NCBI GenBank assembly: GCA_965223095.1
Contig: OZ244979.1
Span: 1,525,744-1,589,743 of the forward strand
Reading direction: 5' to 3'
From: Gammaproteobacteria bacterium
Lineage (GTDB): Bacteria > Pseudomonadota > Gammaproteobacteria > Steroidobacterales > GCA-2729495
DNA: 64,000 nucleotides
In this document: piece after piece, positions 41,391-56,628 of the stretch
Numbering within the stretch: position 1 is the stretch's first letter
Layout: each line of letters starts with the position of its first letter
Translations under genes and position numbers: made by a program
The notes under the pieces: model-generated
Database searches by the model: none
What the model saw: the letters and a program-made list of their open reading frames with translations, nothing else
What the model was told of the DNA's origin: nothing

Positions 41391-41467
41391 GGTGATGTAG
41401 CTCAGCTGGTTAGAGCACGGCACTCATAATGCCGGGGTCGGTGGTTCAAGTCCACCCATCACCACCA
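41391..41467 (+). tRNA. tRNA-Met (anticodon CAT, elongator type)
   Basis: I folded the cloverleaf by hand. The acceptor is GGTGATG/CATCACC, the anticodon stem is CGGCA/TGCCG with loop CTCATAA, the T-arm is GGTGG-TTCAAGT-CCACC, and the CCA is encoded. The D-arm and variable loop match the E. coli elongator tRNA-Met as I recall it. A lysidine-modified tRNA-Ile2 cannot be excluded from sequence alone. Confidence 0.93.
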
Positions 41468-41570
41468 TCTTCTCTCGAAATTTTTTCGTGACCCAGGGTG
41501 ATCTTTTCGGAAGTGCGAGGGCGCGAGTCATGTCGTTATTGATCCGCAAACTGCTTTCGGCTTAAAGCAA

Positions 41571-41587
41571 AAAATTGGTTCGACCCC
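41571..41587 (+). repeat. Recurrent motif, copy 3 (AAAATTGGTTCGACCCC)
   Basis: It lies 104 nt downstream of tRNA-Met, just outside the 3' end of the HNH gene. Confidence 0.5.
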
Positions 41588-41610
41588 GAAAGCTCACGCC
41601 CCATACAGAG

Positions 41611-42972
41611 TCAAGTTCCCCGCTGCTCCATCAACCCGTCTATCGCCCAGTCATAGTCCATCCTCTCCCCCTGCCAGCCGGTAACCGCGGTATCAGCATC
41701 AATCTGCAATTTCCTTTTCACATGCCGACGCATTAAGGCAGCAACGCCCACCCCGTCGACCATACGGCTAGAACGACTGTCCCCGCAATTGGCAATCATC
41801 TCGCCCCACGGATCGCGAAATACAATTTGCGCCGCCTCCCGACGCACACTAAAACCACCTTCATGAATCAAGCGATGATGCCGCCAGCATAGCAGTAGCA
41901 AATTACTCAGCTTCGTTTCCCCGCCCTGCGACCAGTGTTGAATATGGTGTCCATCGACATAGCGGGTGTGGGTGCAACCGGGAAAGCGGCAGCCGCGATC
42001 CCGCGCCACCAAGGCGCGGCGCATGGCGGTGGGAATACTGCGAGTCTTGCGGCCCACATCGAGCGCCTCAGCGTTGGAATTCTTAAACAAACCCACCAAG
42101 CTGGCATCGCAGGCCAAACGCCGAACGGTTTCTGGCGGCAGGCCCGGGCCATGTTCTAGCTCACAACAATCTTCGCCCTCGGCCGCAGCAACATCATCGC
42201 GCAGCGTTTCCGCGGAAACGTGCACCACCACCTGATGCGTGTCACCACTCTTTATTGAGCTCGGTTCACTGGCCAAAAAAGCTTCCGCCAACAATGCCAG
42301 CGCGTCCGCATTGCGATTGGCGGACAAACGCGTTGGGTCGCTTCTATCCAATCGTTCTAAGCTTGACGTTTCCGCGGAAACGTCGGCCGGCGAGGGCAAA
42401 GTCTCTTTCGCCGCTTTCAATGCCTCTACCATCACTGCTCCAAGCTCGGGCGGCAAACAGGCGTGCAGTTGCAATTGACCCGCATCATCGAAAAACCAAC
42501 GCGCCGAGCGCTGGGTATCGCGTTCATTGGCATCGGATAATTGCGCGGCGCGTTCGCAAAACCGCATCCGCCGAACCAAAGTTTCCATATGATGAGCCGT
42601 GCCATGCAGAGCAATGTTCAATAAGTTCTTTTCATTCGCAGCCGTCGCAATGCGCGTCATCGCCCGCACTTTTGAATAGCTAATACGCCCCGCCTCAAAC
42701 GCCTTCGAGATTTGCGGCAAGTCAGGCAACGCCCGCGCCACGCGAACCTTCTCGCGCGCCGCTCCCATAGCCAAACCAATCTTCCAATTCAACCAATGCG
42801 CACAAGAATTAATACCCTGGTGCGCCCAGCCACCCCGTCGATCGAACTCACCAATCAAAGTAATCAACTCATAAGCCCCGGCATTCAAATGCCCCGCTAG
42901 CTCGGTGATATTTTTTTCTAGGGTCGCAAGAATTGCTTCCTTGGGGTGCCGGGGCGGTAGTTCGGAGGGCAT
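41611..42972 (-). CDS. DUF222-type HNH endonuclease
   Basis: 453 aa. The N-terminal region is DUF222-like (LITLIGEFDRRGGWAHQGINSCAHWLNWKIGL...RISYSKVRAMTRIA). The C-terminal HNH motif is CTHTRYVDGHHIQHWSQGGETKLSNLLLLCWRHHRLIHEG. Confidence 0.85.
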   Translation of the reverse strand: MPSELPPRHPKEAILATLEKNITELAGHLNAGAYELITLIGEFDRRGGWAHQGINSCAHWLNWKIGLAMGAAREKVRVARALPDLPQISKAFEAGRISYSKVRAMTRIATAANEKNLLNIALHGTAHHMETLVRRMRFCERAAQLSDANERDTQRSARWFFDDAGQLQLHACLPPELGAVMVEALKAAKETLPSPADVSAETSSLERLDRSDPTRLSANRNADALALLAEAFLASEPSSIKSGDTHQVVVHVSAETLRDDVAAAEGEDCCELEHGPGLPPETVRRLACDASLVGLFKNSNAEALDVGRKTRSIPTAMRRALVARDRGCRFPGCTHTRYVDGHHIQHWSQGGETKLSNLLLLCWRHHRLIHEGGFSVRREAAQIVFRDPWGEMIANCGDSRSSRMVDGVGVAALMRRHVKRKLQIDADTAVTGWQGERMDYDWAIDGLMEQRGT

Positions 42973-43097
42973 GGGAGGGGCCTTGATGATATGTGTATAG
43001 ATATACAGTAGTATACGGGAAAGGGAAGTGAAATCAAGTGGTTAAAGCCGGCGAGAATCAGGAATTAGAAAAAAATAGGGTTTGGGCTGCGATTTCT

Positions 43098-43115
43098 GAA
43101 ATTGCGGTTCGACCC
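43098..43115 (+). repeat. Recurrent motif, copy 4 (GAAATTGCGGTTCGACCC)
   Basis: It lies 126 nt beyond the HNH start codon, in the same orientation as copy 3, so the two copies bracket the HNH gene. Confidence 0.45.
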
Positions 43116-43213
43116 TATTTGTCTCGAAAAACTACATATTTCCGACCGTCACGGGTTAATTAAGGTAGCCGTTAATATGCGGCATGCCTTCTGCCTTATT
43201 AACGCTTAGGTTT

Positions 43214-43240
43214 AATATAGCGCCAAATCTTTGCTATATT
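43214..43240. promoter_or_regulatory. Inverted repeat upstream of fic (AATATAGC-N11-GCTATATT)
   Basis: It has 8-bp perfect arms, and a third related half-site (AAATATAG) lies 14 nt downstream. It sits about 40 nt upstream of the fic start. Confidence 0.3.
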
Positions 43241-43281
43241 AGCGGCTACCGCAAATATAGAGTCATCATAGGAATACGGTC

Positions 43282-44418
43282 TTGAGATCCGGAAGCTACC
43301 AAAATCAGCCGACCGGGTACCGCGCGTTTATACCAGCGCCCTTACCACCCGACCCGGCAATACATCTGGATAACGAGCTTCAAACGCTGTTATCCAATGC
43401 AGATCGAGCACTGGGTCGCCTGGATGGTTCGATCCAAACGCTGCCCGATCCAAATTTGTTCGTTTTGATGTACGTCCGAAAAGAAGCGGTCCTGTCTAGC
43501 CAAATCGAAGGAACACAAAGTTCATTAAACGATCTATTGCGTGCCGAGGCTCGCATCTACGATCCCAATCGCCCGGTCGATGTCAATGAAGTGTCTAACT
43601 ATGTTGCGGCGATGAACTACGGCCTAGAACGTCTCAACGAGTTACCACTTTCAACTCGCTTGATCCGCGAAATTCACGCGCACCTATTGAAGGGTGTACG
43701 CGGTGGCCACATGCAGCCCGGTGAACTCAGGGAGTCGCAGAATTGGATCGGGCCGGGCAATGCGAATTTGAATGAAGCGACTTTCATTCCACCGCCAGCG
43801 CACGAGGTGCCTCAAGCGCTTGGTGATTTGGAGCGGTTTATCCATTCCGAAGACTCCATGCCGTCCCTCATTCGCATTGGGCTAACCCATGCCCAGTTCG
43901 AAACTATTCATCCGTTCCTAGATGGAAACGGTCGTGTGGGTCGTTTGCTCATCACTTTTCTGCTCTGCCAGCAAGGCACTTTGCAGTCTCCGGTGCTTTA
44001 TCTATCCCATTATCTGAAAGAACATAGAGCAGAGTATTACGAGCGCCTTCAGAACATTCGAGACGAAGGCAGTTGGGAATCCTGGCTAAAGTTCTTCCTT
44101 CGTGGGGTTGCGGAAGTTTCAAAAGAGGCAACGGAAACGGCGCGTGGCATCGTGAACTTACGCGAAGCACACCGGCAGAAGATAGTCGATCAGCTCGGTC
44201 GTATTGCGGGCAATGCCCTGCGGGTTCACGAGTTGCTGTTTCGATTTCCGCTAGTAACGGTAAACGATGTTGTAGATTTACTTGAACTGAGCTTTACCTC
44301 CGCGAATCGACTAATAGATCGTTTGGTGGAGATTGACCTTCTCGTCGAAGCTACTGGCAATACCAGAAATAGAGTTTTTCAGTATCAAGATTACATTGAC
44401 ATTTTTTCGGAGAGCTAA
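43282..44418 (+). CDS. Fic-family protein (AMPylase type, with intramolecular inhibitory helix)
   Basis: 378 aa with a TTG start, the Fic motif HPFLDGNGRVGRLL and an N-terminal inhibitory motif [ST]xxxE[GN] (SSQIEG). The C-terminus is winged-helix-like. Confidence 0.9.
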   Translation: MRSGSYQNQPTGYRAFIPAPLPPDPAIHLDNELQTLLSNADRALGRLDGSIQTLPDPNLFVLMYVRKEAVLSSQIEGTQSSLNDLLRAEARIYDPNRPVDVNEVSNYVAAMNYGLERLNELPLSTRLIREIHAHLLKGVRGGHMQPGELRESQNWIGPGNANLNEATFIPPPAHEVPQALGDLERFIHSEDSMPSLIRIGLTHAQFETIHPFLDGNGRVGRLLITFLLCQQGTLQSPVLYLSHYLKEHRAEYYERLQNIRDEGSWESWLKFFLRGVAEVSKEATETARGIVNLREAHRQKIVDQLGRIAGNALRVHELLFRFPLVTVNDVVDLLELSFTSANRLIDRLVEIDLLVEATGNTRNRVFQYQDYIDIFSES

Positions 44419-44471
44419 ATAGTAGGCAGCCGACACTATTTTCCGCATACTAAAGTTATCGTGAAGATTAA

Positions 44472-47225
44472 ATGACACCACCCACCCCAGAAGCAAAAGC
44501 CCGCGAAGAAATTGACCGCCTACTAACAGCAGCAGGTTGGCATGTATGCGACATCGCTGATGCAAACATTTCAGCACATCAGGGGATCGCAATTCGCGAG
44601 TTTCCGCTGAAATCTGGTAGCGGTCACGCCGACTATCTGCTGTATTTGTCGGGAAAAGCCGTTGGTGTAGTCGAGGCGAAGAAGCTGGGTCACTCACTAA
44701 AGGGTGTCGAAATCCAGTCCGAGAAGTACACCACCGGATTGCCGGACACACTGCCAGCCTGGCGGCGACCGTTGCCCTTCGCTTACGAGTCCACCGGTGT
44801 GGAAACACAGTTCACGAGTCGACTTGATCCCGAACCGCGCTCACGAAGAATCTTCGCCTTTCACCGACCCGACGGTCTCGCCAATCTTTTAGACCTTGCC
44901 GAAACTGATAAGGCCGCAGAGGCCTCACCGGAATACATAGCACGCGGGCCAAGTTTCCTGGCACGTATGCAAAACATGCCTGCCCTCATTGATGACGGTT
45001 TATGGGGCAAGCAGGCCGAAGCCATCAAAAACATCGAAGCCTCCCTAAAAGACAACCGCCCCCGCGCCCTGGTCCAAATGGCTACTGGCTCCGGTAAAAC
45101 CTTCACTGCCATCACCCAAATCTACCGCCTAATTAAGTTCGGCGGGGCACGCCGCGTGCTGTTCCTTGTCGATCGCGGCAACCTGGCGGAACAAACAGAA
45201 AAAGAATTCCAGCAGTACAAATCACCCTACAACAACTATAAGTTCACCGAAGAATTCATTGTCCAGCGACTGCAGGGCAACACCATCGACACCACGGCCC
45301 GTGTCTGCATTTGCACCATCCAGCGCATGTACTCCATGCTTAGCAACAAGGAGCTGCCCGAGGCGGGTGACGAGGCCTCCATCGCCGGCCTGGAGTCGCT
45401 GTTCAAGCAGCAGCCGCCCGTTGAATACAATCCGCACATCCCCATCGAATCCTTCGACATCATCATCACCGATGAATGTCACCGCTCCATCTACAACCTC
45501 TGGGCCCAGGTGCTGGAGTACTTCGACGCCTATCTAATCGGCCTCACCGCTACGCCCGGCAAGCAGACCTTCGGCTTTTTCAACCAGAACCTGGTGCTGG
45601 AGTACGGCCACGAGCAGGCCGTGGCCGACGGGGTGAACGTGAACTACGACGTGTTCCGCATCCGCACGGCCATCTCGGAGCAGGGCGCCACCATCGAGGC
45701 AGGCTTCGAGGTGGAAAAGCAGGACCGCGAGACCCGCGAGAAGCGCTGGGAAAAGCTGGACGACGATTTCGACTACGACCCCAACAAGCTCGACCGCGAT
45801 GTCGTCGCCCCCGACCAGATTCGCAGGATCATCCGCACCTTTAAAAACAACCTGCCGGTGATCTACCCGGGCCGCGAGCATGTGCCCAAAACTTTAATCT
45901 TCGCCAAGGACGACAACCACGCAGAAAACATCGTCGCCCTGCTGCGCGAGGAGTTTGCTGCGGGCAATGATTTTGCGCAGAAGATCACCTACCGCACCAC
46001 CGGCGACACCCCGAAAAATTTAATTAAGGCCTTTCGCAACAGCTACCACCCGCGCATTGCCGTCACCGTGGACATGATCGCCACCGGCACCGACATCAAG
46101 CCGGTGGAAATTGTCATGTTCATGCGCGCCGTCAAATCCCGCGCTTTCTTCGAGCAGATGAAGGGCCGCGGTGTGCGGGTGTGTAAGCCAGACGATCTCA
46201 AAGCCGTCACCCCGGATGCCGAGACCAAGGATCATTTCGTGATTGTCGACGCCGTCGGCGTCTGCGAGCAAGACATGACCGACTCCAAACCCATGGAGAA
46301 AAAGCCCACGGTCTCCTTCGAGAAGCTGCTGCAGGCCGTGTCACTGGGCAACACTGAAGAGGACGTGCTCAGTTCGATTGCCGGCCGGCTGGCCCGCATG
46401 GAGCATCGTGCCAGCGAAGAAGATGTGCAACGCATCCGTGAACAAACCCACGGCTTCGGCCTCAAAGACCTCAGCAAGAACCTGGTGGATGCGCTCAATC
46501 CCGATCTCGCCCCCGATGCCCGCCAGGCCAGCATCGAGATGGCCACCCAGCCGTTTCACGATCCCAAGCTGCGGGAATTGCTGGACGTGGTTCGGCAGAA
46601 AAACGAAATCACCATCGACATCATCACCGAAGACGAAGTCCTCGAGGCCGGCTTCAGCCAGAGCGCCGAAGACAAGGCCGCCGAGGTGGTCGACAAGTTC
46701 AAGCAGTTCATTGACGAGAACAAAGACGAGATCACCGCGCTGCAGATTCTCTACAACCGCCCTTATAAGGAGCGCCTGAACTTCGAGCACCTCAAAGAAC
46801 TGTCGTCTGCCATCAGGGCGCCCAAGTACTTAATGAATCGCACGCAGATTTGGGAAGCCTACGCCGCACTAGAAAAGAGCAAGGTCAAAGGCGCGGGCGG
46901 TAAGCGCCTCCTGACCGATCTGGTTTCACTCGTGCGTTTCGCCATGGAAGAAGACAACGAGTTGGTGCCGTTCCCGGAACGGGTCAGCGCCAACTACAAA
47001 GCCTGGCTGGCCAGCCAGGAGAATGCCGGCAATAGCTTTGATGAAGAGCAGCAGAAGTGGTTGGGGATGATTCGGGATCACATTGCCGCCAACTTGAGCA
47101 TCGACACCGAAGACTTCGACTACGCGCCATTCTCGGGTGAGGGCGGCCTTGGCAAAGTACATCAATTGTTTGGTAAGCAGCTGCCGGTGATTCTGGATGA
47201 GCTCAATGAAGGGTTGGCTGCATGA
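44472..47225 (+). CDS. hsdR: Type I restriction enzyme R subunit (EcoEI/type IB-like)
   Basis: 917 aa with the N-terminus PEAKAREEIDRLLTAAGW, helicase motif I (ATGSGKT), motif II (TDECH) and a long helical C-terminal extension. Its stop overlaps the hsdS ATG (ATGA). Confidence 0.95.
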   Translation: MTPPTPEAKAREEIDRLLTAAGWHVCDIADANISAHQGIAIREFPLKSGSGHADYLLYLSGKAVGVVEAKKLGHSLKGVEIQSEKYTTGLPDTLPAWRRPLPFAYESTGVETQFTSRLDPEPRSRRIFAFHRPDGLANLLDLAETDKAAEASPEYIARGPSFLARMQNMPALIDDGLWGKQAEAIKNIEASLKDNRPRALVQMATGSGKTFTAITQIYRLIKFGGARRVLFLVDRGNLAEQTEKEFQQYKSPYNNYKFTEEFIVQRLQGNTIDTTARVCICTIQRMYSMLSNKELPEAGDEASIAGLESLFKQQPPVEYNPHIPIESFDIIITDECHRSIYNLWAQVLEYFDAYLIGLTATPGKQTFGFFNQNLVLEYGHEQAVADGVNVNYDVFRIRTAISEQGATIEAGFEVEKQDRETREKRWEKLDDDFDYDPNKLDRDVVAPDQIRRIIRTFKNNLPVIYPGREHVPKTLIFAKDDNHAENIVALLREEFAAGNDFAQKITYRTTGDTPKNLIKAFRNSYHPRIAVTVDMIATGTDIKPVEIVMFMRAVKSRAFFEQMKGRGVRVCKPDDLKAVTPDAETKDHFVIVDAVGVCEQDMTDSKPMEKKPTVSFEKLLQAVSLGNTEEDVLSSIAGRLARMEHRASEEDVQRIREQTHGFGLKDLSKNLVDALNPDLAPDARQASIEMATQPFHDPKLRELLDVVRQKNEITIDIITEDEVLEAGFSQSAEDKAAEVVDKFKQFIDENKDEITALQILYNRPYKERLNFEHLKELSSAIRAPKYLMNRTQIWEAYAALEKSKVKGAGGKRLLTDLVSLVRFAMEEDNELVPFPERVSANYKAWLASQENAGNSFDEEQQKWLGMIRDHIAANLSIDTEDFDYAPFSGEGGLGKVHQLFGKQLPVILDELNEGLAA

Positions 47226-48586
47226 GTGCGACTGCGCCAAGTGTTGCTCCAGGCTCCGCTGATGAATGGACCGAAACTTCTCTCGGCGAAGTGGCTGAGT
47301 TCGTCATGGGGCAGGCGCCACCCGGAAGCGAATGTAACAAGAAGGGCAAAGGCACTTTGTTTGTGAAGGCGGGAGAGTTTGGTGAGCTTTACCCCGTTGA
47401 GAGGGAGTGGACGACCAAGCCGCTTAAGTTTGGCCAAGATGGCGATGTCTTTATATGCGTGGTTGGCGCCACCTCTGGGAAGCTGAATTTAGGCAGAGAC
47501 TGCGCAATTGGGCGAAGTGTTGCGGCAATTAGGCCAAAAGACGGTGTCGATACTAAATTTATCTACTACCAGCTTCAGCCCTGGGTGATGAAGCTTAGAG
47601 CTGCTTCGACAGGCTCGGCTCAAGGCGTGATCAGTAAAGCGAAACTGAAAGACGTCCCAATGAAAATGGTGGATGAAGAGGCGCAGAAACGCATCGTCGC
47701 CGAAATCGAAAAACAGTTATCCCGCCTCGACGAAGCAGTCGCCAGCCTCAAGCGCGTCAAAGCCAACCTCAAGCGCTACAAAGCCGCCGTTCTCAAAGCC
47801 GCCGTCGAAGGAAAACTCACCGAAGATTGGCGCAAGCAAAACCCCGACGTCGAACCCGCCAGCAAACTCCTCGAACGCATCCTCGCCGAACGCCGCACGA
47901 AATGGGAGGAAGCCGAACTCGCCAAGATGAAGGCGAAAGGCAAAGAGCCGAAGAACGATGATTGGAAAGGCAAATACAAAGCACCCATTTCCCTAGAAGA
48001 ACCAGATTCTGTGAGTATTCCTGATGGCTGGTGCTATACGAGCATAGGTGAGGTCGTTGAATGTTTAGACTCCATAAGAAAACCGATTAATAAGAAGGAC
48101 AGGTTAAGCCGAGTTGGCGAGATCCCTTACTACGGCGCAAATGGGCAGGTAGGAGTAATAGATGACTATCTATTTGATGAGCCGCTAGTTCTGCTTGTCG
48201 AGGATGAGACGTTTGTAGGCCGCACGCTGCCGTTTTCCTACAAAATCTCTGGAAAGACTTGGGTGAACAACCATGCCCATGTGCTGCGGCCTACTGGGTG
48301 TGTTGATCTTGATTATCTCAATTACTCATTAATGTTTTATCCCTTCATTCCATTGACCACAGGGACTACAGGCCGAAAGAAATTGACTCAGAGAGCACTG
48401 ATGGCGGCCCCGTATGAATTGCCTCCTATATTGGAGCAAAAGAAAATCATAGAGGCAGTCGAGGAAAAATTATCGATTTTAGACAAGGTAGAGCTGGAAC
48501 TAGACCGGACAGAAGCTCAGCTTTCTATGACACGTCAGTCCGTTCTAGCCCAGGCTTTCGCTGGGATGGCGGATGGCAATGGGTAG
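47222..48586 (+). CDS. hsdS: Type I R-M specificity subunit
   Basis: 454 aa with two target-recognition domains separated by a conserved coiled-coil spacer (IVAEIEKQLSRLDEAVASLKRVKANLKRYKAAVLKAAVEGKLTEDWR) and a C-terminal helix (QSVLAQAF). Confidence 0.9.
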   Translation: MSATAPSVAPGSADEWTETSLGEVAEFVMGQAPPGSECNKKGKGTLFVKAGEFGELYPVEREWTTKPLKFGQDGDVFICVVGATSGKLNLGRDCAIGRSVAAIRPKDGVDTKFIYYQLQPWVMKLRAASTGSAQGVISKAKLKDVPMKMVDEEAQKRIVAEIEKQLSRLDEAVASLKRVKANLKRYKAAVLKAAVEGKLTEDWRKQNPDVEPASKLLERILAERRTKWEEAELAKMKAKGKEPKNDDWKGKYKAPISLEEPDSVSIPDGWCYTSIGEVVECLDSIRKPINKKDRLSRVGEIPYYGANGQVGVIDDYLFDEPLVLLVEDETFVGRTLPFSYKISGKTWVNNHAHVLRPTGCVDLDYLNYSLMFYPFIPLTTGTTGRKKLTQRALMAAPYELPPILEQKKIIEAVEEKLSILDKVELELDRTEAQLSMTRQSVLAQAFAGMADGNG

Positions 48587-49784
48587 AGTCAAAGACGAGT
48601 GGATTGAGGCAGAAGCGCGGGGTTGGAATGACCCCGAAAAGTTTGTCTGCGCTCAGTGCGTTGATGATCCGATTCTAAAGTCAGAAATTCGGGCTAGTGT
48701 GAGCAACAAGGTCTGTGATTACTGTGGGGCAAAGTCGGCTGATCCTATCGCCGCTCCCACAGAGTCGATAATGACGCATGTTACAGAGGCATTCTTCAGT
48801 GAATACGCCGACCCATCGATGGCGAGTGTGCCTTATGCTGAAGTTGAATACCTGTTTAGCGGATCAATGACGGATACCGAAGATGCCCTAATGGCACTTC
48901 CGCTGGAATGTCACGACGATCTTTTTGCAGACATTGCAGGCGCTTTCTTAAACGACTTATGGTATCCGTGTGCTAATGGCCATTGGGCGGAAGTTAGCGG
49001 TCACCAAGAGCTGCGCTTTGGGTGGGAGCGTTTTGAGGAAACGACTAAGCATGAGAGCCGCTACTTCTTTCCGAGAATTGGCGGCGCGGTTGAGCCCGGA
49101 GAGCGATATTCGCCGGGAGACATATTGGCGGCGATTGGTGCTCTAGTACAAGAGAATAAGCTGACAGCGACCATACAGGCGGAAACAAAAGTCTATAGGG
49201 TGCGGGAAATATCACCTGATAAGACACTTACCGAATACAGCGAAATTGGATCGCCGCCGAATCGTTTGGCTGCAGCAGGTCGCATGAACCCGGCGGGAAT
49301 AAGCTACTTTTATACAGGTCTCGATGAGCCAACCTCACTTGCTGAAGTTCTAGAAAGGCCACCATGCCGAGCCTCAATAGGGGTTTTCGCGCCAAAAAAC
49401 GAATTCTTAGTGCTGGACCTTACGAATCTTCCACCTGTTCCATCGGTGTTTGACTCGTCTAGACGGCTGGAGCGTGATGGGATCTTATTCCTGTATGACT
49501 TCGTCGATGCTGTGGCAAAGCCAATCGCTAAAGATGGCAATGAGCATGTTGACTATGTTCCGACGCAGATCGTTTGCGAGTATTTTGCACAAGTCTTTAC
49601 AGCTGATGAAGGCAAGCGACTATCAGGCATTATTTATCCCAGTGCCGTGAGGCCAAGCGGCAAGAATCTGGTTATTTTTCCTACACGGAATGTTCTTGTT
49701 GACTGGCCGGATTTCATTGCGCTCAAGTCAATTAGTCACCGAGATTTTGATGTCTGGGCGGATATGAAGGATTTGACCAAGTGA
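48573..49784 (+). CDS. Zinc-ribbon N-terminal domain (HEPN/RES-NTD1-like) fused to a RES domain (predicted NAD+-targeting toxin fold)
   Basis: 403 aa with two CxxC pairs (CAQC at residues 26-29, CDYC at 48-51). The RES signature is present: GRMNPAGISYFY (R237), LAEV (E258) and IIYPSAVRPSGKNLVIF (S357). Its start overlaps the hsdS 3' end by 14 nt (an alternative ATG at 48579 overlaps by 8 nt). Confidence 0.85.
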   Translation: MAMGRVKDEWIEAEARGWNDPEKFVCAQCVDDPILKSEIRASVSNKVCDYCGAKSADPIAAPTESIMTHVTEAFFSEYADPSMASVPYAEVEYLFSGSMTDTEDALMALPLECHDDLFADIAGAFLNDLWYPCANGHWAEVSGHQELRFGWERFEETTKHESRYFFPRIGGAVEPGERYSPGDILAAIGALVQENKLTATIQAETKVYRVREISPDKTLTEYSEIGSPPNRLAAAGRMNPAGISYFYTGLDEPTSLAEVLERPPCRASIGVFAPKNEFLVLDLTNLPPVPSVFDSSRRLERDGILFLYDFVDAVAKPIAKDGNEHVDYVPTQIVCEYFAQVFTADEGKRLSGIIYPSAVRPSGKNLVIFPTRNVLVDWPDFIALKSISHRDFDVWADMKDLTK

Positions 49785-49831
49785 CCTTTGCAATTAGCGT
49801 ATATAGGTCTTGGAATTACAGGGGATAGATT

Positions 49832-51043
49832 TTGGGTGAAAAAAAGAAATTCGTGGTAAGTGTAGACCTTGGGGGCGAAGGTCAGGTTTCTCTGAAAACG
49901 CATGAAGCGGTTGAGGAGTGGGTAGCTAGCCAAATTGAGTTTTGGCAATGGGCGCATGGCCAGCGAAACGATAACGCCATTCAGCAGGCCTGGGGGAAGC
50001 TAAACCAGACCTTCACGAATATTAGGAACATAAACAACGAAGCGATTCGGTTTATAGACCAAGATCCCTACGAAGCGAAGCAGCAGGCGCTAGAAAGCGC
50101 AATTCAGCAGCTTGCCGATCCAAAAAACGGAATGCTGTCGGAGAATCCAAAGTCGATCTTCCTGCAGGATTTGAGGGAGTCGCATGGCGATCGCGTTGCT
50201 GCCTACTGTCTCGCGATGTTTATGGAGACGGGTATAACAGCTAACAATCCCCAAGCTATCCAAGGGTCTGTTGAGGCGGTTCTTTACGATCGGGGAATAA
50301 AGAGCAGCGCGAGGCCAGAGAAAAAGGCTCTTGCAACGCTGAAAAAAAATTTTCAGACTGAGTGGCAGGAATATAAGGAGAAGTATGAAGGCCTAGCCGA
50401 CGACTATGCAGAAGTTAAAGGCAATGTTGATGCAACGCTTGATACGTTTAAAACCGAGTTTGCTGAAGATCAGCAGGCTCGCGACGTGGAGCATCAGGAA
50501 TTCAAAGAGACCGTAAATAACCAATGGGAGGCAATCAAGCAGACATTTACAGACCATATGGCGCTTCAAGCGCCTATCGAGTACTGGCGTGATAAGAAAA
50601 AGTCTCATCGTGTGCGAGCCATTTGGTACTCGATCGCAACAGCGGCAGCGGTGGGAGCGACTTTATTCGGACTATATGAGTTAGGTGAATTGCTTCTCTT
50701 GGGTGAGTCCAGTAAATGGGAAGGGCTCCCAGGTGTTACTTGGTTAGGTGTGCCGCTATGGCATGTTGTATTGCTCACTGTAATGGGCTCTGTTGGTGTC
50801 TGGATCATCAGGATTCTCGTGCGGTTGCTGCTGAGTGAAATTCATCTAATGGCAGATGCTGACGAAAGAGTAGTCATGGCTAAAACCTATTTGGCTCTGC
50901 TCAAAGAGGATAAAGGCCCGGAATCGGGTGACAGAACATTGATCTTGCAAACGCTGTTTAGACCATCATCCAAAGGAATAGTGGGCGATGAGGCGCACCC
51001 CGTGATGCCGTCCGACTGGATTAGTAAGGTGATGGGTAAATAG
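49832..51043 (+). CDS. Orphan coiled-coil protein with two C-terminal transmembrane helices
   Basis: 403 aa with a TTG start preceded by AGGGGA at 6-nt spacing. Residues 160-260 are charged and helical. The TM segments are at about residues 263-285 (AIWYSIATAAAVGATLFGLYELG) and 306-334 (VPLWHVVLLTVMGSVGVWIIRILVRLLL). The DNA is AT-rich. I cannot assign a family with confidence. Confidence 0.75.
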   Translation: MGEKKKFVVSVDLGGEGQVSLKTHEAVEEWVASQIEFWQWAHGQRNDNAIQQAWGKLNQTFTNIRNINNEAIRFIDQDPYEAKQQALESAIQQLADPKNGMLSENPKSIFLQDLRESHGDRVAAYCLAMFMETGITANNPQAIQGSVEAVLYDRGIKSSARPEKKALATLKKNFQTEWQEYKEKYEGLADDYAEVKGNVDATLDTFKTEFAEDQQARDVEHQEFKETVNNQWEAIKQTFTDHMALQAPIEYWRDKKKSHRVRAIWYSIATAAAVGATLFGLYELGELLLLGESSKWEGLPGVTWLGVPLWHVVLLTVMGSVGVWIIRILVRLLLSEIHLMADADERVVMAKTYLALLKEDKGPESGDRTLILQTLFRPSSKGIVGDEAHPVMPSDWISKVMGK

Positions 51044-51108
51044 GGCGACATGGATTCAGTGCGCATCATCCATAATCCTTGGCGCTGCCCTGCACTGCAG
51101 GTAGGAGC

Positions 51109-51918
51109 ATGAAGAAATCGATACCAGCGCCAGTAATAGCGGCTGTGGCAGAGCTTGTTACTGAATGGGAGACGCATGCCACTCTCGATAGTCTGTTTAT
51201 GTATGCGGGCGCCCCGGGTGATCCGCCACTGGAAAGTAAACACGCAAAGGCATTGGCTTGGTTGCGACGCGCTAATCAGGAGGAGGGCGTGGATGCTCTT
51301 GCAGTGTTGGGCGGGATAATTGAAGGATATATGGATGGCGAGTTTGTAACGGAGTTCCCTGACTGGGAAAAGAAACGAACGCAACAAATGAAGCGGTTAA
51401 AGGCCGCCTTGGCAAGAGCTAATCTTCAGTATATACCGGGAGGCAAGATTGCTGGAGCGCACTCGACTCCCAGCATCAGCTTGGAAGAGCAGATCAGAAA
51501 AAGAGATGTTGAGAGCCTTTCCGTTGAGTTCGATCGAGCAGTCCAGAATATAGAGAGTTCACCTCGTGAGTCACTTTCTGCTGCCTGCAATATTTTGGAA
51601 TCAGTATTCAAGGTTTACATTGAAGACGAAGGATTAGATGCGCCAAAAAAGCTTGATTTGAGGCCTACTTGGGCAGTGGTCCGGGAGGATCTCAATTTTG
51701 ATCCCAGCAAATTGGAAGATAGAGACTTGAAGGAAATATTGAGTGGGTTGGCTTCGGTGATTAATGGTGTCGGTGCCTTACGAACTCATGCGAGCACGGC
51801 GCATGGAGCGGGTAAAAAGACGTACAAGATTGAAAGTAGGCATGCGAGGCTGGCGGTGCATGCCGCGCATACGGTAGCGTTGTTTGTTCTAGAGTCGTGG
51901 GATAAGAAATCAAAATGA
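51109..51918 (+). CDS. Abi_C-type abortive-infection family protein (HEPN-like R-x6-H motif)
   Basis: 269 aa from ATG 51109 (alternative TTG at 51079). The C-terminal region GLASVINGVGALRTHASTAHGAG...RHARLAVHAAHTVALFVLE matches the Abi C-terminal domain pattern (LRN..gxAHG...A). Its stop overlaps the hsdM ATG (ATGA). Confidence 0.8.
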   Translation: MKKSIPAPVIAAVAELVTEWETHATLDSLFMYAGAPGDPPLESKHAKALAWLRRANQEEGVDALAVLGGIIEGYMDGEFVTEFPDWEKKRTQQMKRLKAALARANLQYIPGGKIAGAHSTPSISLEEQIRKRDVESLSVEFDRAVQNIESSPRESLSAACNILESVFKVYIEDEGLDAPKKLDLRPTWAVVREDLNFDPSKLEDRDLKEILSGLASVINGVGALRTHASTAHGAGKKTYKIESRHARLAVHAAHTVALFVLESWDKKSK

Positions 51919-53393
51919 CGGATCAAGACATCACCCAAAAACTCTGGAACTACTGCCACGTCCTGCTTGCAGATGGTATGCATTTCAGCGACTACGTCGA
52001 GCAGTTGACCTATCTGCTGTTCCTGAAGATGGTGGACGAGCGCACGCAGGCGCCGTATAACCAGCCCAGTATCGTGCCCGAGAAGTGGGGCTGGCAGACG
52101 CTCCTGAAGAAAGACGGCGATGAGCTGTTTGATCATTATCGGCATACGCTGGAAGCGCTGGGTGATGAGAAGGGCATGCTGGGGCTGATCTTTAACAAGT
52201 CGCAGAGCAAGTTTCAGGATCCGGCGAAGCTGCGGCGGCTGATTGTTGACCTGATTGACAAGGAAAACTGGTCGACGATGTCGGCCGATGTGAAGGGCGA
52301 TGCCTACGAGGGGCTTTTAGAGAAGAACGCCCAGGACACGAAGTCCGGTGCGGGGCAGTATTTCACGCCGCGTGGGTTGATCGCGGCCATGGTAGAGGTG
52401 GTGAACCCGCAGCCGGGCGAGACCATCTGCGATCCGGCCTGCGGCACCGGCGGTTTTCTGCTGGCGGCCCACGAATACCTGATTAAAGACCCCAACCTGA
52501 CCCGGGATCAGAAGAAAAAGCTCAAAGACGGCACCCTTAGCGGTATCGAGTTGGTGCAGTCGGTCGCGCGACTCTGTGCGATGAACCTGCTCCTGCACGG
52601 CATCGGCAGTCAGGAATCCGAACCCGTGCAGGTCACCGATTCGCTGGCCGCGGACCCCGGTGACCGCTTCGACATCGTGCTCGCCAATCCGCCCTTCGGC
52701 AAGAAAGGGGCGTTCACGATCGTGGGCGAGGACGGCAAGGTCTCCAAGGAGAAGGAGAGCTACGAGCGGGACGATTTCTGGGCCACCACCTCCAACAAAC
52801 AGCTCAACTTCGTGCAGCACATCAAGACGCTGCTGAAGATCAACGGCCGCGCCGCCGTGGTGGTGCCCGACAACGTGCTCTTCGAGGGCGGGGCGGGCGA
52901 AACCATCCGCCGCAAGTTATTGCACGAGTGCAATGTGCACACCCTGCTGCGTCTGCCCACGGGGCTCTTCTACGCGCAGGGCGTGAAGGCCAATGTGGTG
53001 TTCTTTGAGAAGAAAGCTGCCTCCGAGACACCGTGGACCAAAAAGCTGTGGATCTACGACCTGCGCACCAACAAACACTTCACCCTCAAGACCAACCCGC
53101 TGCAACGGAAAGACCTGGATGAGTTTGTGAAGTGCTACACGGCCAAAAGGCGCAAGCGGACATGGAGCGAGGATAATCCGCAGGGCCGCTGGCGTGCATA
53201 TGACCACGATGAGTTGGTCGCCCGTGATAAGGCGAGCCTGGATATCTTCTGGCTGAAGGATGAGTCGCTGGAAGATTCAGAGAACCTGCCGGCGCCGGGG
53301 GTGATCGCGGCGGAGATTGTGGAGGACCTGGAATCAGCGCTGGCGCAGATGCGGCTGATTGCGGAGGATTTGGGGGAGGCTAGGCCGGAATGA
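51915..53393 (+). CDS. hsdM: Type I R-M DNA methyltransferase subunit
   Basis: 492 aa with the HsdM N-domain (LWNYCHVLLADGMHFSDYVEQLTYLLFLK), the SAM motif (DPACGTGGFL) and the catalytic NPPF (VLANPPFGKKG). Confidence 0.95.
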   Translation: MTDQDITQKLWNYCHVLLADGMHFSDYVEQLTYLLFLKMVDERTQAPYNQPSIVPEKWGWQTLLKKDGDELFDHYRHTLEALGDEKGMLGLIFNKSQSKFQDPAKLRRLIVDLIDKENWSTMSADVKGDAYEGLLEKNAQDTKSGAGQYFTPRGLIAAMVEVVNPQPGETICDPACGTGGFLLAAHEYLIKDPNLTRDQKKKLKDGTLSGIELVQSVARLCAMNLLLHGIGSQESEPVQVTDSLAADPGDRFDIVLANPPFGKKGAFTIVGEDGKVSKEKESYERDDFWATTSNKQLNFVQHIKTLLKINGRAAVVVPDNVLFEGGAGETIRRKLLHECNVHTLLRLPTGLFYAQGVKANVVFFEKKAASETPWTKKLWIYDLRTNKHFTLKTNPLQRKDLDEFVKCYTAKRRKRTWSEDNPQGRWRAYDHDELVARDKASLDIFWLKDESLEDSENLPAPGVIAAEIVEDLESALAQMRLIAEDLGEARPE

Positions 53394-53433
53394 AGATGTG
53401 GATGGTTCGCGCAGGTAGAAAAGGCGTATTACC

Positions 53434-54498
53434 CTATTTCAAATAGTCGAAAATACCTTTAACTTCGCCATTGCTCAGCATGGGTTCGAAGTATTCAATG
53501 TACCCGGTCAGCTCATCAAGAGCTAAGATTTTCACATGCCTAAACTCTGCCTTAGGCTTCGCGTTCGTCATAGCGATGATGTTACGTATTGAAATCTTTT
53601 TCTTGCCCCAGTGATGATTGTCTAGTTTGACATCGCTAAAGCCAGAGTCGCTGTTGAGCAATACAAATAGGGCATAGCCAGATCTCCTGATCTGCTCGAC
53701 TGGCGACCGAAGATCCAGATCTTGTACAGACTGTTTGCTCCAGTTTTTGGTTTCAATCAGAAATACACCAGATGGGCAAATGAGAAGGTGGTCTATCTGG
53801 ACACTGAAAATTCGGTCGTCTTCTTTGCGGTTGAAAATAGGGGGATCAAATTCAACCGAAAAGTCATTAATCAAATAGTGCTCATCGGAAAGTTTTTCCA
53901 ATGCATTGACGACTGCCGCTTCGCCCACAGCCCCGGCTATTAGCGGATAGAGTTCGTCGATTAGTGATTTTGTGCGGCCTAGTTCGGCTGCCGATTTTTC
54001 GACACGTTCTGCAGTTGTTACGTCTTTATTCTTAATGAATGCGTCTAGCGTATTCTCTGCGTCTTTAGCGGACGCTTCTACATCATTAGTTTGTTTTGCG
54101 ACGAGCTTATCAATACTGTTTTCGAGCTTAGCGGTTTTGCGCTTCAGGCTTGCAAAAGCAGGATAAAGAAAAAGCTTGGCAAGCAGGTTTCTGTTGCGCC
54201 GGGTTTCGACTCTATCTCGTTCTGTTTGCAACTGCGTGAGCTCTTGATTGAGCTCATCTTTTACGCGTAGCTGAAGTTCACTGTGGGCTGTTTGGCTCGC
54301 CGCGAGTGAAGCACGCATATTCTGAACTTCTCGGTCGATCGCGCGTTCGACCTGTGTCGGTATTGCTCGCTTTTCGGCTTCATAGTTTTTAAGAAAAGCA
54401 TTGATGTCGGCGATTGAGTTGAATCGAGTTATCCCGGCCTCGCTCAGCGTTTCTTTCAGTCGCTTCAGGGGCTCAATTTGCCCTTCAACAATCGTCAT
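53434..54498 (-). CDS. Coiled-coil protein with a C-terminal NERD (nuclease-related) domain
   Basis: 354 aa. The N-terminal 190 aa are heptad-rich. The C-terminal core INDFSVEF...SVQIDHLLICPSGVFLIETKNWS is the NERD pattern. It is convergent with hsdM and AT-rich. Confidence 0.8.
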   Translation of the reverse strand: MTIVEGQIEPLKRLKETLSEAGITRFNSIADINAFLKNYEAEKRAIPTQVERAIDREVQNMRASLAASQTAHSELQLRVKDELNQELTQLQTERDRVETRRNRNLLAKLFLYPAFASLKRKTAKLENSIDKLVAKQTNDVEASAKDAENTLDAFIKNKDVTTAERVEKSAAELGRTKSLIDELYPLIAGAVGEAAVVNALEKLSDEHYLINDFSVEFDPPIFNRKEDDRIFSVQIDHLLICPSGVFLIETKNWSKQSVQDLDLRSPVEQIRRSGYALFVLLNSDSGFSDVKLDNHHWGKKKISIRNIIAMTNAKPKAEFRHVKILALDELTGYIEYFEPMLSNGEVKGIFDYLK

Positions 54499-54607
54499 GG
54501 GCCCATATTGTATTGGCTATTTCATGCAAAATCAGGGCCAGAACGGGGCGCTAACAATGTTTGTGAGGCATAGTCAAAGCTTCCTGTGGGCGGAACAAGA
54601 GCAAAAA

Positions 54608-54625
54608 GGAGTCGAACCGATTTTT
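54608..54625 (-). repeat. Recurrent motif, copy 5 (reverse orientation; AAAAATCGGTTCGACTCC on the minus strand)
   Basis: It lies between the NERD gene start and the small HTH ORF. Confidence 0.45.
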
Positions 54626-54633
54626 CGGGGCGG

Positions 54634-54891
54634 TTAGTGAGCCTTTTTGCGTCTACCACATTTGCCAGTGGGGATATCTCGGCCGAGCAAGGTTGAGTAT
54701 TTCGTGCCGGGCGAAACTTTATAAATTATTTCTGTTTTTCTGAGTTGCTCGATGGTGCGCGGTAGTGCCGGTCGGGAACGACCAAAACGGCGCGCAACGC
54801 CGCTGATTGTGACAATGTGATTGTCTGTCGTATCGATGACAATGTTGGCGCGGATGCGTGCTGGGGTACTCGCGCTTGATGTGCTACACAT
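54634..54891 (-). CDS. Possible small excisionase/MerR-like HTH protein (uncertain)
   Basis: The segment VTISGVARRFGRSRPALPRTIEQLRKTEIIYKVSPGTKY has the spacing of HTH_17/excisionase-type domains. The start is unclear (the ORF extends to 55011) and I see no clear RBS. Confidence 0.3.
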   Translation of the reverse strand: MCSTSSASTPARIRANIVIDTTDNHIVTISGVARRFGRSRPALPRTIEQLRKTEIIYKVSPGTKYSTLLGRDIPTGKCGRRKKAH

Positions 54892-54988
54892 AAGTCCTTG
54901 TCGACTTAAACCAAATTGGCACGCACACGGGTTCATGAGTAGATATCGAATCAAGATAGGCAAAATAGGACTAGAGCCAATCAACCAC

Positions 54989-55004
54989 AAAAATCGGTTT
55001 GGAC
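54989..55004 (+). repeat. Recurrent motif, copy 6 (degenerate; AAAAATCGGTTTGGAC)
   Basis: It is inverted relative to copy 5, and together the two bracket the small HTH ORF. Confidence 0.35.
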
Positions 55005-55172
55005 TTCCCACGGTCTAGTAGACATCTCCGGGCTACAGCCAAGAACCGAACAGGATAAGGATCAAGGGTGCATTAGAAATTGCGACGCAAATCAGCATCC
55101 ACAGGTGGTCTTTATTGTTATCTCTTGTGATCGATACAAACAACGACAATGCCAATACCAGCTAGCGCCCCA

Positions 55173-55721
55173 TCATTCTTGAAGGTAATCCACTATTTTT
55201 GGATCGTTAAGCATTTGAATAACGGCTCGTGGTATGGCCCCCTCGCAGGCGAGCTTAGGTAGATACGCGAGACCTGCAGTCGCTCCATTGCTACCTTCGT
55301 AAGTCTGAGAATACCCTCGGGCGGTTTCAACATCCAACGTGACTTTGCAGGTAGAAAGCGCAAAACCGAAATCTAGCGTGGCACTCGTGATGGATAGGCT
55401 AATTGCCTTTGCTTCATTGGCTCCAACTGACACGCCACCATCTCGCAAAGCTCTTTCTGCATGAATGATTGCAACATCTGTCCATTCCCTGCGGTTGCTC
55501 ATCCACTCGAAACGGCCTTTCTTACCCATTAGGACTGGTTCCGTAGATTCTTGACCATTCCTTAGTGAAACCGCTGCCGAGGTATTTATTGTAGGGAAAT
55601 TGCTGGTTTGTATGGGAAATGACTCAGGATTAGGCTGCATGTGCTCAGTTTTTGTTGAGCAGGCAGTTACCAATAGAATGGTGAGAACCGAAAAGACGAC
55701 AAGTATATTTTTCTTACTCAT
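55173..55721 (-). CDS. Orphan lipoprotein
   Basis: The start is set at MSKKNILVVFSVLTILLVTAC (lipobox LVTAC). The protein is 182 aa, the DNA is AT-rich, and I recognise no family. Confidence 0.65.
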   Translation of the reverse strand: MSKKNILVVFSVLTILLVTACSTKTEHMQPNPESFPIQTSNFPTINTSAAVSLRNGQESTEPVLMGKKGRFEWMSNRREWTDVAIIHAERALRDGGVSVGANEAKAISLSITSATLDFGFALSTCKVTLDVETARGYSQTYEGSNGATAGLAYLPKLACEGAIPRAVIQMLNDPKIVDYLQE

Positions 55722-56013
55722 ATTTAATATTCCCAGGGTTCGCATGCAGTAGTACATTGTTTGTTTGCATATATCCTGCGTCAGAAACTGCCTATCGGGA
55801 CACTAAGCACGGCTGCAGATTACGAGAACATTGCGCCAGGTTGTTGCACGGGTATTCTTATACACTGAATTGGTGCCAGCGGGAAGCCGCTTCCGCGTCA
55901 ACTATGCCTGTTTGTGTGCGTAGCAAGGTTTCGGGTGATGAATGCACCGCTGTCAGGCTCGGCCTGATTGTCGCCGGCGGGCGTATTCAGGGCGAGACGG
56001 GGCGCCATCGGAT

Positions 56014-56044
56014 TATTTAGAATTCTTACTCTGACCCTATTAAT
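56014..56044. mobile_element. Solo right-end copy of the MITE/IS terminal repeat
   Basis: ATTTAGAATTCTTACTCTGACCCTATTAAT compares with the MITE right ends AAATAGTTTTTACTCTGACCCCATAAT. It abuts the miaE stop codon and marks the right edge of the island. Confidence 0.5.
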
Positions 56045-56628
56045 CAATGCAGTGCCGGCCGAAATTGCAAGCCTTGAACAATTTCGGCTTCTACCCGCAG
56101 TAACTCCTCAAGCCGCGGATAGATGACCTCATCAGCAAACTCCTTGAGTAACAAATGTACAAACAGGTGACCATGCTTTTGCTCCGCTTTCCAGAGTCGA
56201 TGGTAGAAAGCTCTAAGTTCTTCATCGGGAAATGATTGGGCGAGAATGCCGAAACGCTCGGCCCCGCGGCATTCAATGATTGACGCGATGAGCATGCGAT
56301 CGATAAGCCGCTCGTCGCGTCCGTGCCGCGCAACGGCCAGTAGATCGTTGATATAAGGATCCGGTTCATCTTTTTGTAGCCGTAAGCCGCGCTTCTCCAG
56401 CAGCGCATAGACTTGCTGAAAATGCTCGAGTTCTTCGCGGGCCACTTCAATCAAGCCGGGTATCAGGGCAGGGCGGTCTGGATATTTGGCCACGAAACTC
56501 ATCGCCAGGGCTGATGCTTTGCGCTCACAATTCGCATGGTCCAGTAAAAAGGCGTCAAAATCACCCAGCACGGTTTCCAGCCACGTGGGTGATGTGTTAA
56601 CAAGCACGTCGATGGATTTTTTAGTCAA
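56044..56628 (-). CDS. miaE: tRNA-(ms2io6A37)-hydroxylase, diiron ferritin-like
   Basis: 194 aa with MiaE-like sequence (FLLDHANCERKASALAMSFVAKYPDR...AREELEHFQQV...WKAEQKHGHLF). ExxH-type diiron ligand motifs are present. Confidence 0.85.
   Translation of the reverse strand: MTKKSIDVLVNTSPTWLETVLGDFDAFLLDHANCERKASALAMSFVAKYPDRPALIPGLIEVAREELEHFQQVYALLEKRGLRLQKDEPDPYINDLLAVARHGRDERLIDRMLIASIIECRGAERFGILAQSFPDEELRAFYHRLWKAEQKHGHLFVHLLLKEFADEVIYPRLEELLRVEAEIVQGLQFRPALH

Follow-up and report, generated by a model that had tools for sequence, protein, structure and literature searches.

The question raised by the locus described here is whether three adjacent genes lodged between hsdS and hsdM of a type I restriction-modification (R-M) operon work together as one defence system or represent independent defence genes. 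The operon is located in a stretch of 64,000 nucleotides (nt) from a Gammaproteobacteria bacterium (contig OZ244979.1, positions 1,525,744 to 1,589,743). This whole stretch is referred to below as the window, and all coordinates are positions in it. The three genes, designated X, Y, and Z, give the operon the order hsdR-hsdS-X-Y-Z-hsdM, and its six open reading frames (ORFs), all on the + strand, span 44472-53393. A first-pass annotation had proposed that X, Y, and Z are the parts of a single undescribed abortive-infection system coupled to the R-M genes. According to the present analysis, the locus is probably a type I R-M operon with a variable defence islet that holds three independent single-gene modules and not one machine. 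Such islet cargo is a known phenomenon, namely, defence genes embedded in a defence operon, and represents no new kind of defence system; this particular combination of cargo has not been described previously.

The recurrence of the trio was analyzed in the neighbourhoods of homologues of each gene. For X, the sample consisted of 80 species-representative genome loci and the closest metagenomic relative (81 in total), with ORFs considered within 10 kb; at least 2.5 kb of sequence downstream of X was present in 64 of the 80 genome loci. For Z, 80 metagenome loci encoding homologues 53–68% identical to it were used, of which 42 include 2.5 kb or more of flanking sequence on one side. Homologues of Y were represented by six places. 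Co-occurrence was searched by phmmer and by profile hidden Markov models (HMMs) constructed from the family alignments, with the same outcome. A relative of Y or Z was found in none of the 81 X loci, a relative of X or Y in none of the 80 Z loci, and a relative of X or Z in none of the six places with Y homologues. Three longer loci (L166–L168; compared loci are designated by L numbers), with the two closest Z homologues examined (70–71% identical), contain no RES, DUF6161, or hsd genes; they are integrase-linked or mobile-element islands. This was the neighbourhood check proposed by the first-pass annotation itself, and because X, Y, and Z never co-occur elsewhere in the loci examined (81 X, 80 Z, and 6 Y places), their interpretation as one R-M-coupled three-gene system is not supported. 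No locus examined suggests that the three genes need each other. In addition, 75 of the 80 species-level X loci have no relative of the window's hsd genes beside X, and approximately 77 of the 80 Z loci are without detectable hsd relatives. The components are not undescribed either, as had been supposed: X has the features of the antiphage RES-domain protein family (aRES), while Y and Z match the single-gene PADLOC models AbiZ and AbiJ, respectively.

Comparison with sister operons of the same hsd lineage showed how the interval between hsdS and hsdM varies. L001, the operon's closest relative, has the frame hsdR-hsdS-X...hsdM, with nucleotide identity (NI) of 84% for hsdR, 82% for X, and 89% for hsdM. 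Homology to L001 stops at 49766, inside the 3' end of X, and resumes at 51928-51934, at the hsdM start. The swapped cargo segment containing Y and Z (49785..51914) is without DNA homology to L001, which has in its place 8.8 kb of different genes. These encode a 1286-aa PIN-TPR-GreABC protein, a permuted GreAB-C protein, and an AbiEii-like pair recognized by PADLOC as PDC-M21A/B. In L002, L172, and L173 (hsdM 86.5% identical), hsdS is followed by PDC-M21A/B, a 125-aa HsdM N-terminal remnant, Avs3 (PADLOC, 4.5e-209), aRES, and hsdM. L005 (hsdM 76% identical) has the order hsdR, hsdS, two unknown genes, aRES, and hsdM, and in L171 (X 62% identical) the aRES start is located directly after the hsdS stop. 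The five closest relatives of X (46–82% identity; L001, L171, L002, L172/L173, and L005) all belong to this hsd lineage, and the place of aRES in it varies, being after hsdS in some operons and before hsdM in others. The hsdM of the sister operons is 76–89% identical at the nucleotide level, yet their cargo differs.

Traces of exchange were noted in the sister loci. Between two cargo blocks of L001 lies a stray copy, 57 nt long, of the hsdM 5' end (93% identity; L001:17485-17541), and the HsdM_N fragment ORF of 125 aa mentioned above occupies L002:2773-3150 (also present in L172 and L173), with 120 nt matching at 90% identity. Judging by sequence, these remnants resemble scars left by recombination at the start of hsdM and point to homologous recombination there as the mechanism of cargo exchange. 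In the window cassette, neither hsdM 5' remnants nor flanking repeats were found when looked for. Since the sister cargoes differ and a stray hsdM 5' copy lies between cargo blocks, the hsdS-hsdM interval can be considered a modular recombining islet. Within it, X is taken to be the older resident, as it is common to the sister operons at a divergence similar to that of hsdR and hsdM, and Y+Z is taken to have been inserted later or by exchange. In this one type I R-M lineage, the hsdS-hsdM interval is best described as a swap site for stand-alone defence genes, with cargo across five sister loci that includes aRES, Avs3, PDC-M21, PIN-TPR-GreABC, AbiJ-like, and AbiZ-like genes.

The first of the three genes, X (48579..49784, + strand, in an ORF that opens at 48573), encodes a protein of 401 aa. 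Domains were assigned using Pfam (scores above the gathering threshold), PADLOC, and NCBIfam models. The N-terminal part of X matches PF18870 (HEPN_RES_NTD1) with an E-value of 2.9e-20 and 73.4 bits, the cut-off being 27.4, and the C-terminal part, residues 224-372, matches the RES domain PF08808 (E-value 1.6e-16, 61.2 bits against a cut-off of 23.2). The first-pass annotation had described X as a zinc ribbon joined to a RES domain with an intact R/E/S triad, and this description is confirmed by the Pfam matches and by residue conservation. The zinc-ribbon residues C24, C27, C46, and C49, as well as R235, E256, and S355 (401-aa numbering; R237, E258, and S357 in the numbering of the annotation), are invariant in 32 homologues. 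The conserved catalytic R/E/S residues were placed by alignment of homologues and not by structural comparison with NatT or a tested aRES protein.

The aRES family was described in a January 2026 preprint by Osterman et al. from the Sorek laboratory (bioRxiv 10.64898/2026.01.28.702374). It is defined computationally as proteins of 300–600 aa with the RES Pfam domain and PF18870, without an operonic partner, and is found in approximately 4% of genomes (10.64898/2026.01.28.702374). In the methods of the preprint, RES is given the Pfam accession PF00808; PF08808 was presumably meant. Single cloned aRES genes from E. coli, Klebsiella, and Enterobacter conferred phage protection with no need for R-M, the protein working alone in E. 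coli, and aRES was shown to deplete NAD+, yielding nicotinamide and ADP-ribose-1''-phosphate (10.64898/2026.01.28.702374). The main text of the preprint names no phage trigger, the word "trigger" being absent from it. The fusion of PF18870 and RES domains was already recorded in 2013 (Anantharaman et al., PMC3710099). X agrees with the aRES definition in each sequence feature, i.e., the RES domain, PF18870, a length of 401 aa, and the lack of a conserved partner. Based on these features, X is assigned to aRES, the recently named family of stand-alone NAD+ phosphorylases. A search of PDB sequences with the aRES family profile returned chance matches only, with no RES toxin among them.

A conserved partner of X was sought by clustering the neighbours in the 80 genome loci and was rejected: the largest neighbour family is present in 12 loci, and none is universal or related to Y or Z. 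The most frequent neighbours are a DrmMI-like/type IIG methylase with an LmuB-like ATPase, present in 12 loci, followed by an HNH protein in 7 and a Ymh-HEPN protein in 4 loci of Psychrobacter; the majority of the more distant X relatives lack a recurrent partner. In the 12 methylase loci, which belong to 12 species (L007:3625-9984 and L009, L011, L012, L014, L015, L023, L039, L043, L054, L072, and L073), aRES is located downstream of an MmeI-like methylase of approximately 1300-1430 aa (PADLOC DrmMI, 9.7e-230). Eight of these 12 loci also contain a gene for an SMC/LmuB-like ATPase of approximately 680 aa, which ends 14 nt before aRES. The DrmMI-like methylase loci may constitute a second kind of host in which aRES is recurrently embedded. 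In Psychrobacter (L062:9092-9913, also L063, L067, and L069), a gene encoding a 274-aa Ymh HEPN protein (PF09509, 7.7e-12), unrelated to Z, is found approximately 5 nt upstream of aRES, so that a HEPN gene and aRES recur as a pair within this one genus.

The second gene, Y (49832..51043, + strand, TTG start), encodes a protein of 403 aa that matches Pfam DUF6161 at 8e-20. The PADLOC model AbiZ was matched at 5.2e-13, with only model positions 192-373 of 398 corresponding to Y residues 163-377 (the C-terminal 46% of the model). The family is rare, with 31 relatives among 5.8 billion clustered proteins. The AlphaFold model of Y (predicted local distance difference test, pLDDT, 79.7) contains an N-terminal helical domain, a helix approximately 130 residues long, a membrane hairpin, and, at the C-terminus, a conserved tail with the motif ...TYLALL...LFRPS..G.... 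Of the earlier description of Y as a coiled coil ending in two transmembrane (TM) helices, the presence of two segments is retained: Kyte-Doolittle hydropathy shows two hydrophobic segments near the C-terminus, and the model places its hairpin there. Strong hydrophobicity is a feature of the second segment only (~305-341). A Foldseek comparison of the model with the PDB gave only long coiled-coil noise and no informative neighbour, and a Pfam search with the N-terminal domain at E-values up to 10 gave no usable match.

DUF6161 has been listed as a proteobacterial family predicted by a language model to be defensive, for which homology to known defence proteins could not be detected (10.1101/2025.01.08.631966, 2025). 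The AbiZ protein of Lactococcus lactis (Durmaz and Klaenhammer 2007) is thought to bring about premature lysis in cooperation with the phage holin, and its fold is not recognisable (PMC13064643). By analogy, Y may be an AbiZ-like inner-membrane protein that damages the membrane or makes infected cells lyse sooner. The embedding of Y in an R-M operon provides support of the "guilt by embedding" kind for DUF6161 as a defence family, flagged so far by the language model only. As for the six places with Y homologues, two share one arrangement, in which the homologue follows a different type I R-M operon and then an unrelated 366-aa gene; the others (one each) are located after an MmeI-like methylase, in a phage-like island, alone, and among small unknown genes. 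The closest homologue of Y (45% identity; L082:289-11215) follows a type I operon with the order hsdM-hsdS-DUF6119-hsdR and an embedded DUF6119 gene. The 366-aa gene before the closest homologue (L082 and L083) was considered as a counterpart of X and rejected, being unrelated to X and having a sub-threshold OGG-like match.

The third gene, Z (51109..51918, + strand, in an ORF that opens at 51079), encodes a protein of 269 aa with an Abi_C domain (PF14355, 5.1e-20, 71.8 bits against a cut-off of 24). It also matches the PADLOC model AbiJ at 1.3e-15, in residues 123-275 only, i.e., in the C-terminal half. The Z family is very large (1597 matches) and strongly conserved. The Abi_C domain with an R-x6-H motif noted in the first-pass annotation proved to be well founded: the motif RTHASTAH corresponds to R225-THASTA-H232, and R225, H227, and H232 are invariant in 27 homologues. 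The structural model of Z (pLDDT 85.7) shows the highest similarity with HEPN folds of the PDB, namely, 1o3u, 2hsb (TM-target 0.72), 3o10, and 7bxo, with probabilities of 0.87-1.0 and weak E-values of 0.25-1.3; the top matches include the sacsin HEPN domain and a HEPN toxin. For the conserved N-terminal domain (~1-120), no Pfam match was found in residues 1-133 at E-values up to 10, including the AbiJ-NTD models. HEPN genes of the AbiJ family have been recorded in R-M operons (Anantharaman et al. 2013, PMC3710099). The C-terminal HEPN domain of Z is predicted to be an RNase that may be released once the N-terminal domain senses a phage component. A conserved partner of Z was not supported, as its neighbour families occur in at most 3 of the 80 loci. 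In L166 (L166:5223-8807), two Abi_C paralogues of 238 and 268 aa are located within 3 kb, beside an integrase and filamentous-phage genes (Zot, Phage_Coat_B).

The junctions of the operon were compared with the ORF coordinates, which match the gene order on one strand and the overlaps and gaps given by the first-pass annotation. hsdR (44472..47225, 917 aa) and hsdS (47222..48586, 454 aa) have the ATGA at 47222-47225 in common. The start of X was assigned to the ATG at 48579 (MGRVKD...) based on homologues and a database entry of 401 aa (403 aa from the first ATG), and because X starts there, the overlap of hsdS and X is 8 nt. The gap between X and Y is 47 nt, with AGGGGA ahead of the TTG start of Y at 49832. 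The gap between Y and Z is 65 nt when Z starts at the ATG at 51109, a start supported by every one of 27 aligned homologues. Z and hsdM (51915..53393, 492 aa) overlap by the ATGA at 51915-51918. Consensus scans revealed no promoter-like or terminator-like site in the X-Y and Y-Z gaps. The best promoter-like match in the region, a putative sigma-70-like promoter of the operon (44396..44423, + strand, TTGACA-16-AATAGT, 10/12 to consensus only), is located directly upstream of hsdR; the total numbers of promoter-like and terminator-like sites are not above those in shuffled sequence. Because the gaps contain no promoter or terminator signal and the best promoter-like site precedes hsdR, a single transcript from hsdR to hsdM is plausible. 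Rfam families or tandem repeats fitting an RNA antitoxin for the HEPN protein were not found.

The cassette differs in composition from the genes that surround it. The GC content of X, Y, and Z is 0.497, 0.487, and 0.491, respectively, against 0.570 for hsdR and 0.592 for hsdM, and the contrast is strongest at third codon positions (GC3 of 0.48, 0.52, and 0.48 against 0.73 and 0.80). The cassette is therefore AT-richer than hsdR and hsdM, as the first-pass annotation had noted, and because of this contrast its suggestion of a secondary insertion is upheld. The same applies to its general idea that abortive-infection-type effectors are embedded in a type I R-M operon, which agrees with the domain and model matches.

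The manner in which such a locus could operate can be outlined from the junctions, families, and domains. Read-through from the hsd promoter would express X, Y, and Z with the hsd genes. On infection, the RES domain of X would phosphorolyse NAD+ to nicotinamide and ADP-ribose-1''-phosphate, leading to growth arrest, as expected from its family. Y, a predicted inner-membrane protein, could compromise the membrane or cause earlier lysis, perhaps in the way of AbiZ. The N-terminal domain of Z would sense a phage component and thereby free the C-terminal HEPN RNase. Restriction would serve as the first layer of defence, with three different suicide or arrest effectors as back-up; this layered defence would follow from the joint expression of X, Y, and Z with the hsd genes. 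Embedding would also tie the inheritance and expression of the three genes to those of the R-M genes.

Several observations weigh against the reading of the locus as a collection of independent modules. The tight junctions (8-nt overlap, ATGA, and short gaps) are also compatible with a co-evolved operon; the contexts of Y are few (six places), and many Z loci are on short contigs. The role of Y in defence rests on a half-length AbiZ match, the embedding, and the language-model prediction for DUF6161. Finally, the fact that all five closest relatives of X are found in one hsd lineage could mean functional coupling and not mere co-inheritance. The last point leads to an alternative in which the X subclade (most likely) and/or Z are effectors guarded by R-M in the manner of PrrC-EcoprrI, firing when a phage anti-restriction protein disables HsdMS(R). 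This alternative is favoured by the position of these five relatives (46–82% identity) directly after hsdS or before hsdM, the start/stop overlaps at hsdS/X and Z/hsdM, the existence of the PrrC precedent, and the lack of a phage trigger in the main text of the aRES preprint. However, aRES proteins protect when cloned alone, without R-M, hsd relatives are lacking in the 75 X loci and ~77 Z loci indicated above, X does not keep one position within the operon, and co-inheritance with a recombining operon suffices to explain the association. Guarding by R-M is thus considered unlikely. If it were true, aRES would gain a defined trigger, and Y (DUF6161) would be a third, experimentally new membrane-acting Abi effector.

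Other explanations have still lower probability. Y and Z could form a two-gene unit, a membrane partner with a HEPN RNase, that arrived together and separately from X; they make up exactly the segment diverging from L001, have similar GC content, and are separated by a gap of 65 nt. This is very unlikely, since no Z-family gene was found near any of the six Y homologues and no Y-family gene in the 80 Z loci or in L166–L168, and homologues of Z are common (1597) whereas those of Y are rare (31). It is highly improbable that all three genes are components of one new abortive-infection system inserted as a unit. Although the genes adjoin one another on one strand, are separated by short gaps, and resemble each other in GC content (0.49), the trio and every pair of it are absent from the 81 X loci, 80 Z loci, and 6 Y places; furthermore, a sister operon has X without Y and Z, the X family acts alone, and Z has no conserved neighbour. 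It is equally improbable that X, Y, and Z have no anti-phage role and persist only through linkage to R-M, as selfish toxin or addiction modules or as passengers in decay, an explanation that draws on the fact that RES and HEPN are classic toxin domains (PMC3710099). It is contradicted by the intactness of the three ORFs with all family-invariant residues preserved, the anti-phage activity shown for aRES members, and the presence of the recognised defence genes Avs3 and PDC-M21 in the sister cargo. The reading of the islet as three independent single-gene modules is therefore preferred. The locus also shows that a subclade of aRES, a family described as free-standing, is stably nested in an R-M operon, and this subclade is a natural place to seek the trigger of aRES.

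The R-M part of the locus is a complete type I system, with hsdR, a two-TRD (target recognition domain) hsdS, and hsdM intact in one operon. HsdR is an EcoEI/EcoAI-like type I restriction endonuclease/helicase subunit with the Pfam domains HSDR_N, ResIII, Helicase_C, and EcoEI_R_C (NF008521 at 1.2e-124; PADLOC REase_I). The specificity subunit HsdS has two Methylase_S stretches according to Pfam (PADLOC Specificity_I at 1e-59), corresponding to two TRDs with a conserved central spacer; in comparison with L001, the central region is 95% identical and the TRDs are diverged. HsdM, the methyltransferase subunit, contains HsdM_N and N6_Mtase (2.3e-72, Pfam; PADLOC MTase_I at 4.6e-197). The hsdS central spacer (47741-47785) includes a 21-nt (7-codon) tandem repeat in 2.1 copies (ASLKRVK / ANLKRYK). 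The sequence recognised by some type I systems changes with the number of copies of the spacer repeat.

The R-M operon is situated inside an island of approximately 14.5 kb (window 41391-56628) that extends from tRNA-Met (41391-41467) to miaE (56044-56628). The island also contains an HNH/DUF222 gene (41611-42972, - strand) and a SoFic defence gene (43282-44418; PADLOC 2.8e-126), the latter located directly upstream of hsdR. A further island gene, which encodes a NERD domain (53434-54498, - strand), is convergent with hsdM. Neither an integrase nor an att-like repeat of tRNA-Met was found in the wider island when looked for.

Comparison of the individual proteins with known systems shows likenesses and differences for each of them. 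X resembles aRES in having PF18870 and RES, a length of 401 aa, the R/E/S triad, and a defence-island site adjoining R-M and Abi genes, a likeness judged by domains and definition and not by the sequences of the three tested proteins. It differs in being ~23-26% identical to full-length enterobacterial plasmid homologues annotated as "RES family NAD+ phosphorylase" and in overlapping hsdS translationally within an R-M operon, whereas aRES is free-standing. With the Xre-RES pairs (ParST, MbcTA, and NatT), the X family has in common the RES domain, the R/E/S residues, and the chemistry of NAD+ phosphorolysis. In contrast to these pairs, no Xre/DUF2384-type antitoxin gene adjoins X, which has hsdS upstream and Y downstream, and X has an additional N-terminal zinc ribbon and is approximately twice as long. 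Y is similar to AbiZ in length (403 aa against a 398-position model), in being a single gene with a predicted membrane-anchored C-terminal region, and in having no PDB fold match; its match is limited to the C-terminal 46% of the model, and its Pfam family is DUF6161. The C-terminal half of Z resembles the lactococcal AbiJ in its Abi_C/AbiJ match, invariant R-x6-H, and predicted HEPN fold, whereas none of AbiJ-NTD1-5 is found at the N-terminus of Z, whose N-terminal domain is of unassigned type.

As for the operon as a whole, operons of type I R-M, BREX, DISARM, and Hma often nest stand-alone defence genes, and PDC-M21A/B is a candidate found by such embedding (Payne et al. 2024, 10.1101/2024.01.29.577857). 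In the partial supplementary tables of that work, the Pfam accessions and names of X, Y, and Z were not found, which says little given the incompleteness of the tables. Another example of embedding is TgvAB, a type IV restriction system of two proteins that is found in the V. cholerae VPI-2 T1RM (PMC11411939). The locus differs from PrrC/EcoprrI in that PrrC hardly occurs outside type I R-M and is under its physical control, whereas most occurrences of X, Y, and Z are outside R-M, with one of the six Y places lying next to a type I R-M; furthermore, none of the three has an ATPase domain, in contrast to PrrC, which combines an ABC-ATPase with a HEPN anticodon nuclease. At the same time, the locus resembles PrrC/EcoprrI, TgvAB, and the HEC/PDC candidates in having extra genes nested among hsd genes, co-oriented and probably co-transcribed with them, with layered immunity as the probable result, and the likeness to these embedded-gene precedents extends to the sister operons, which carry the PDC-M21A/B genes of Payne et al. 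themselves.

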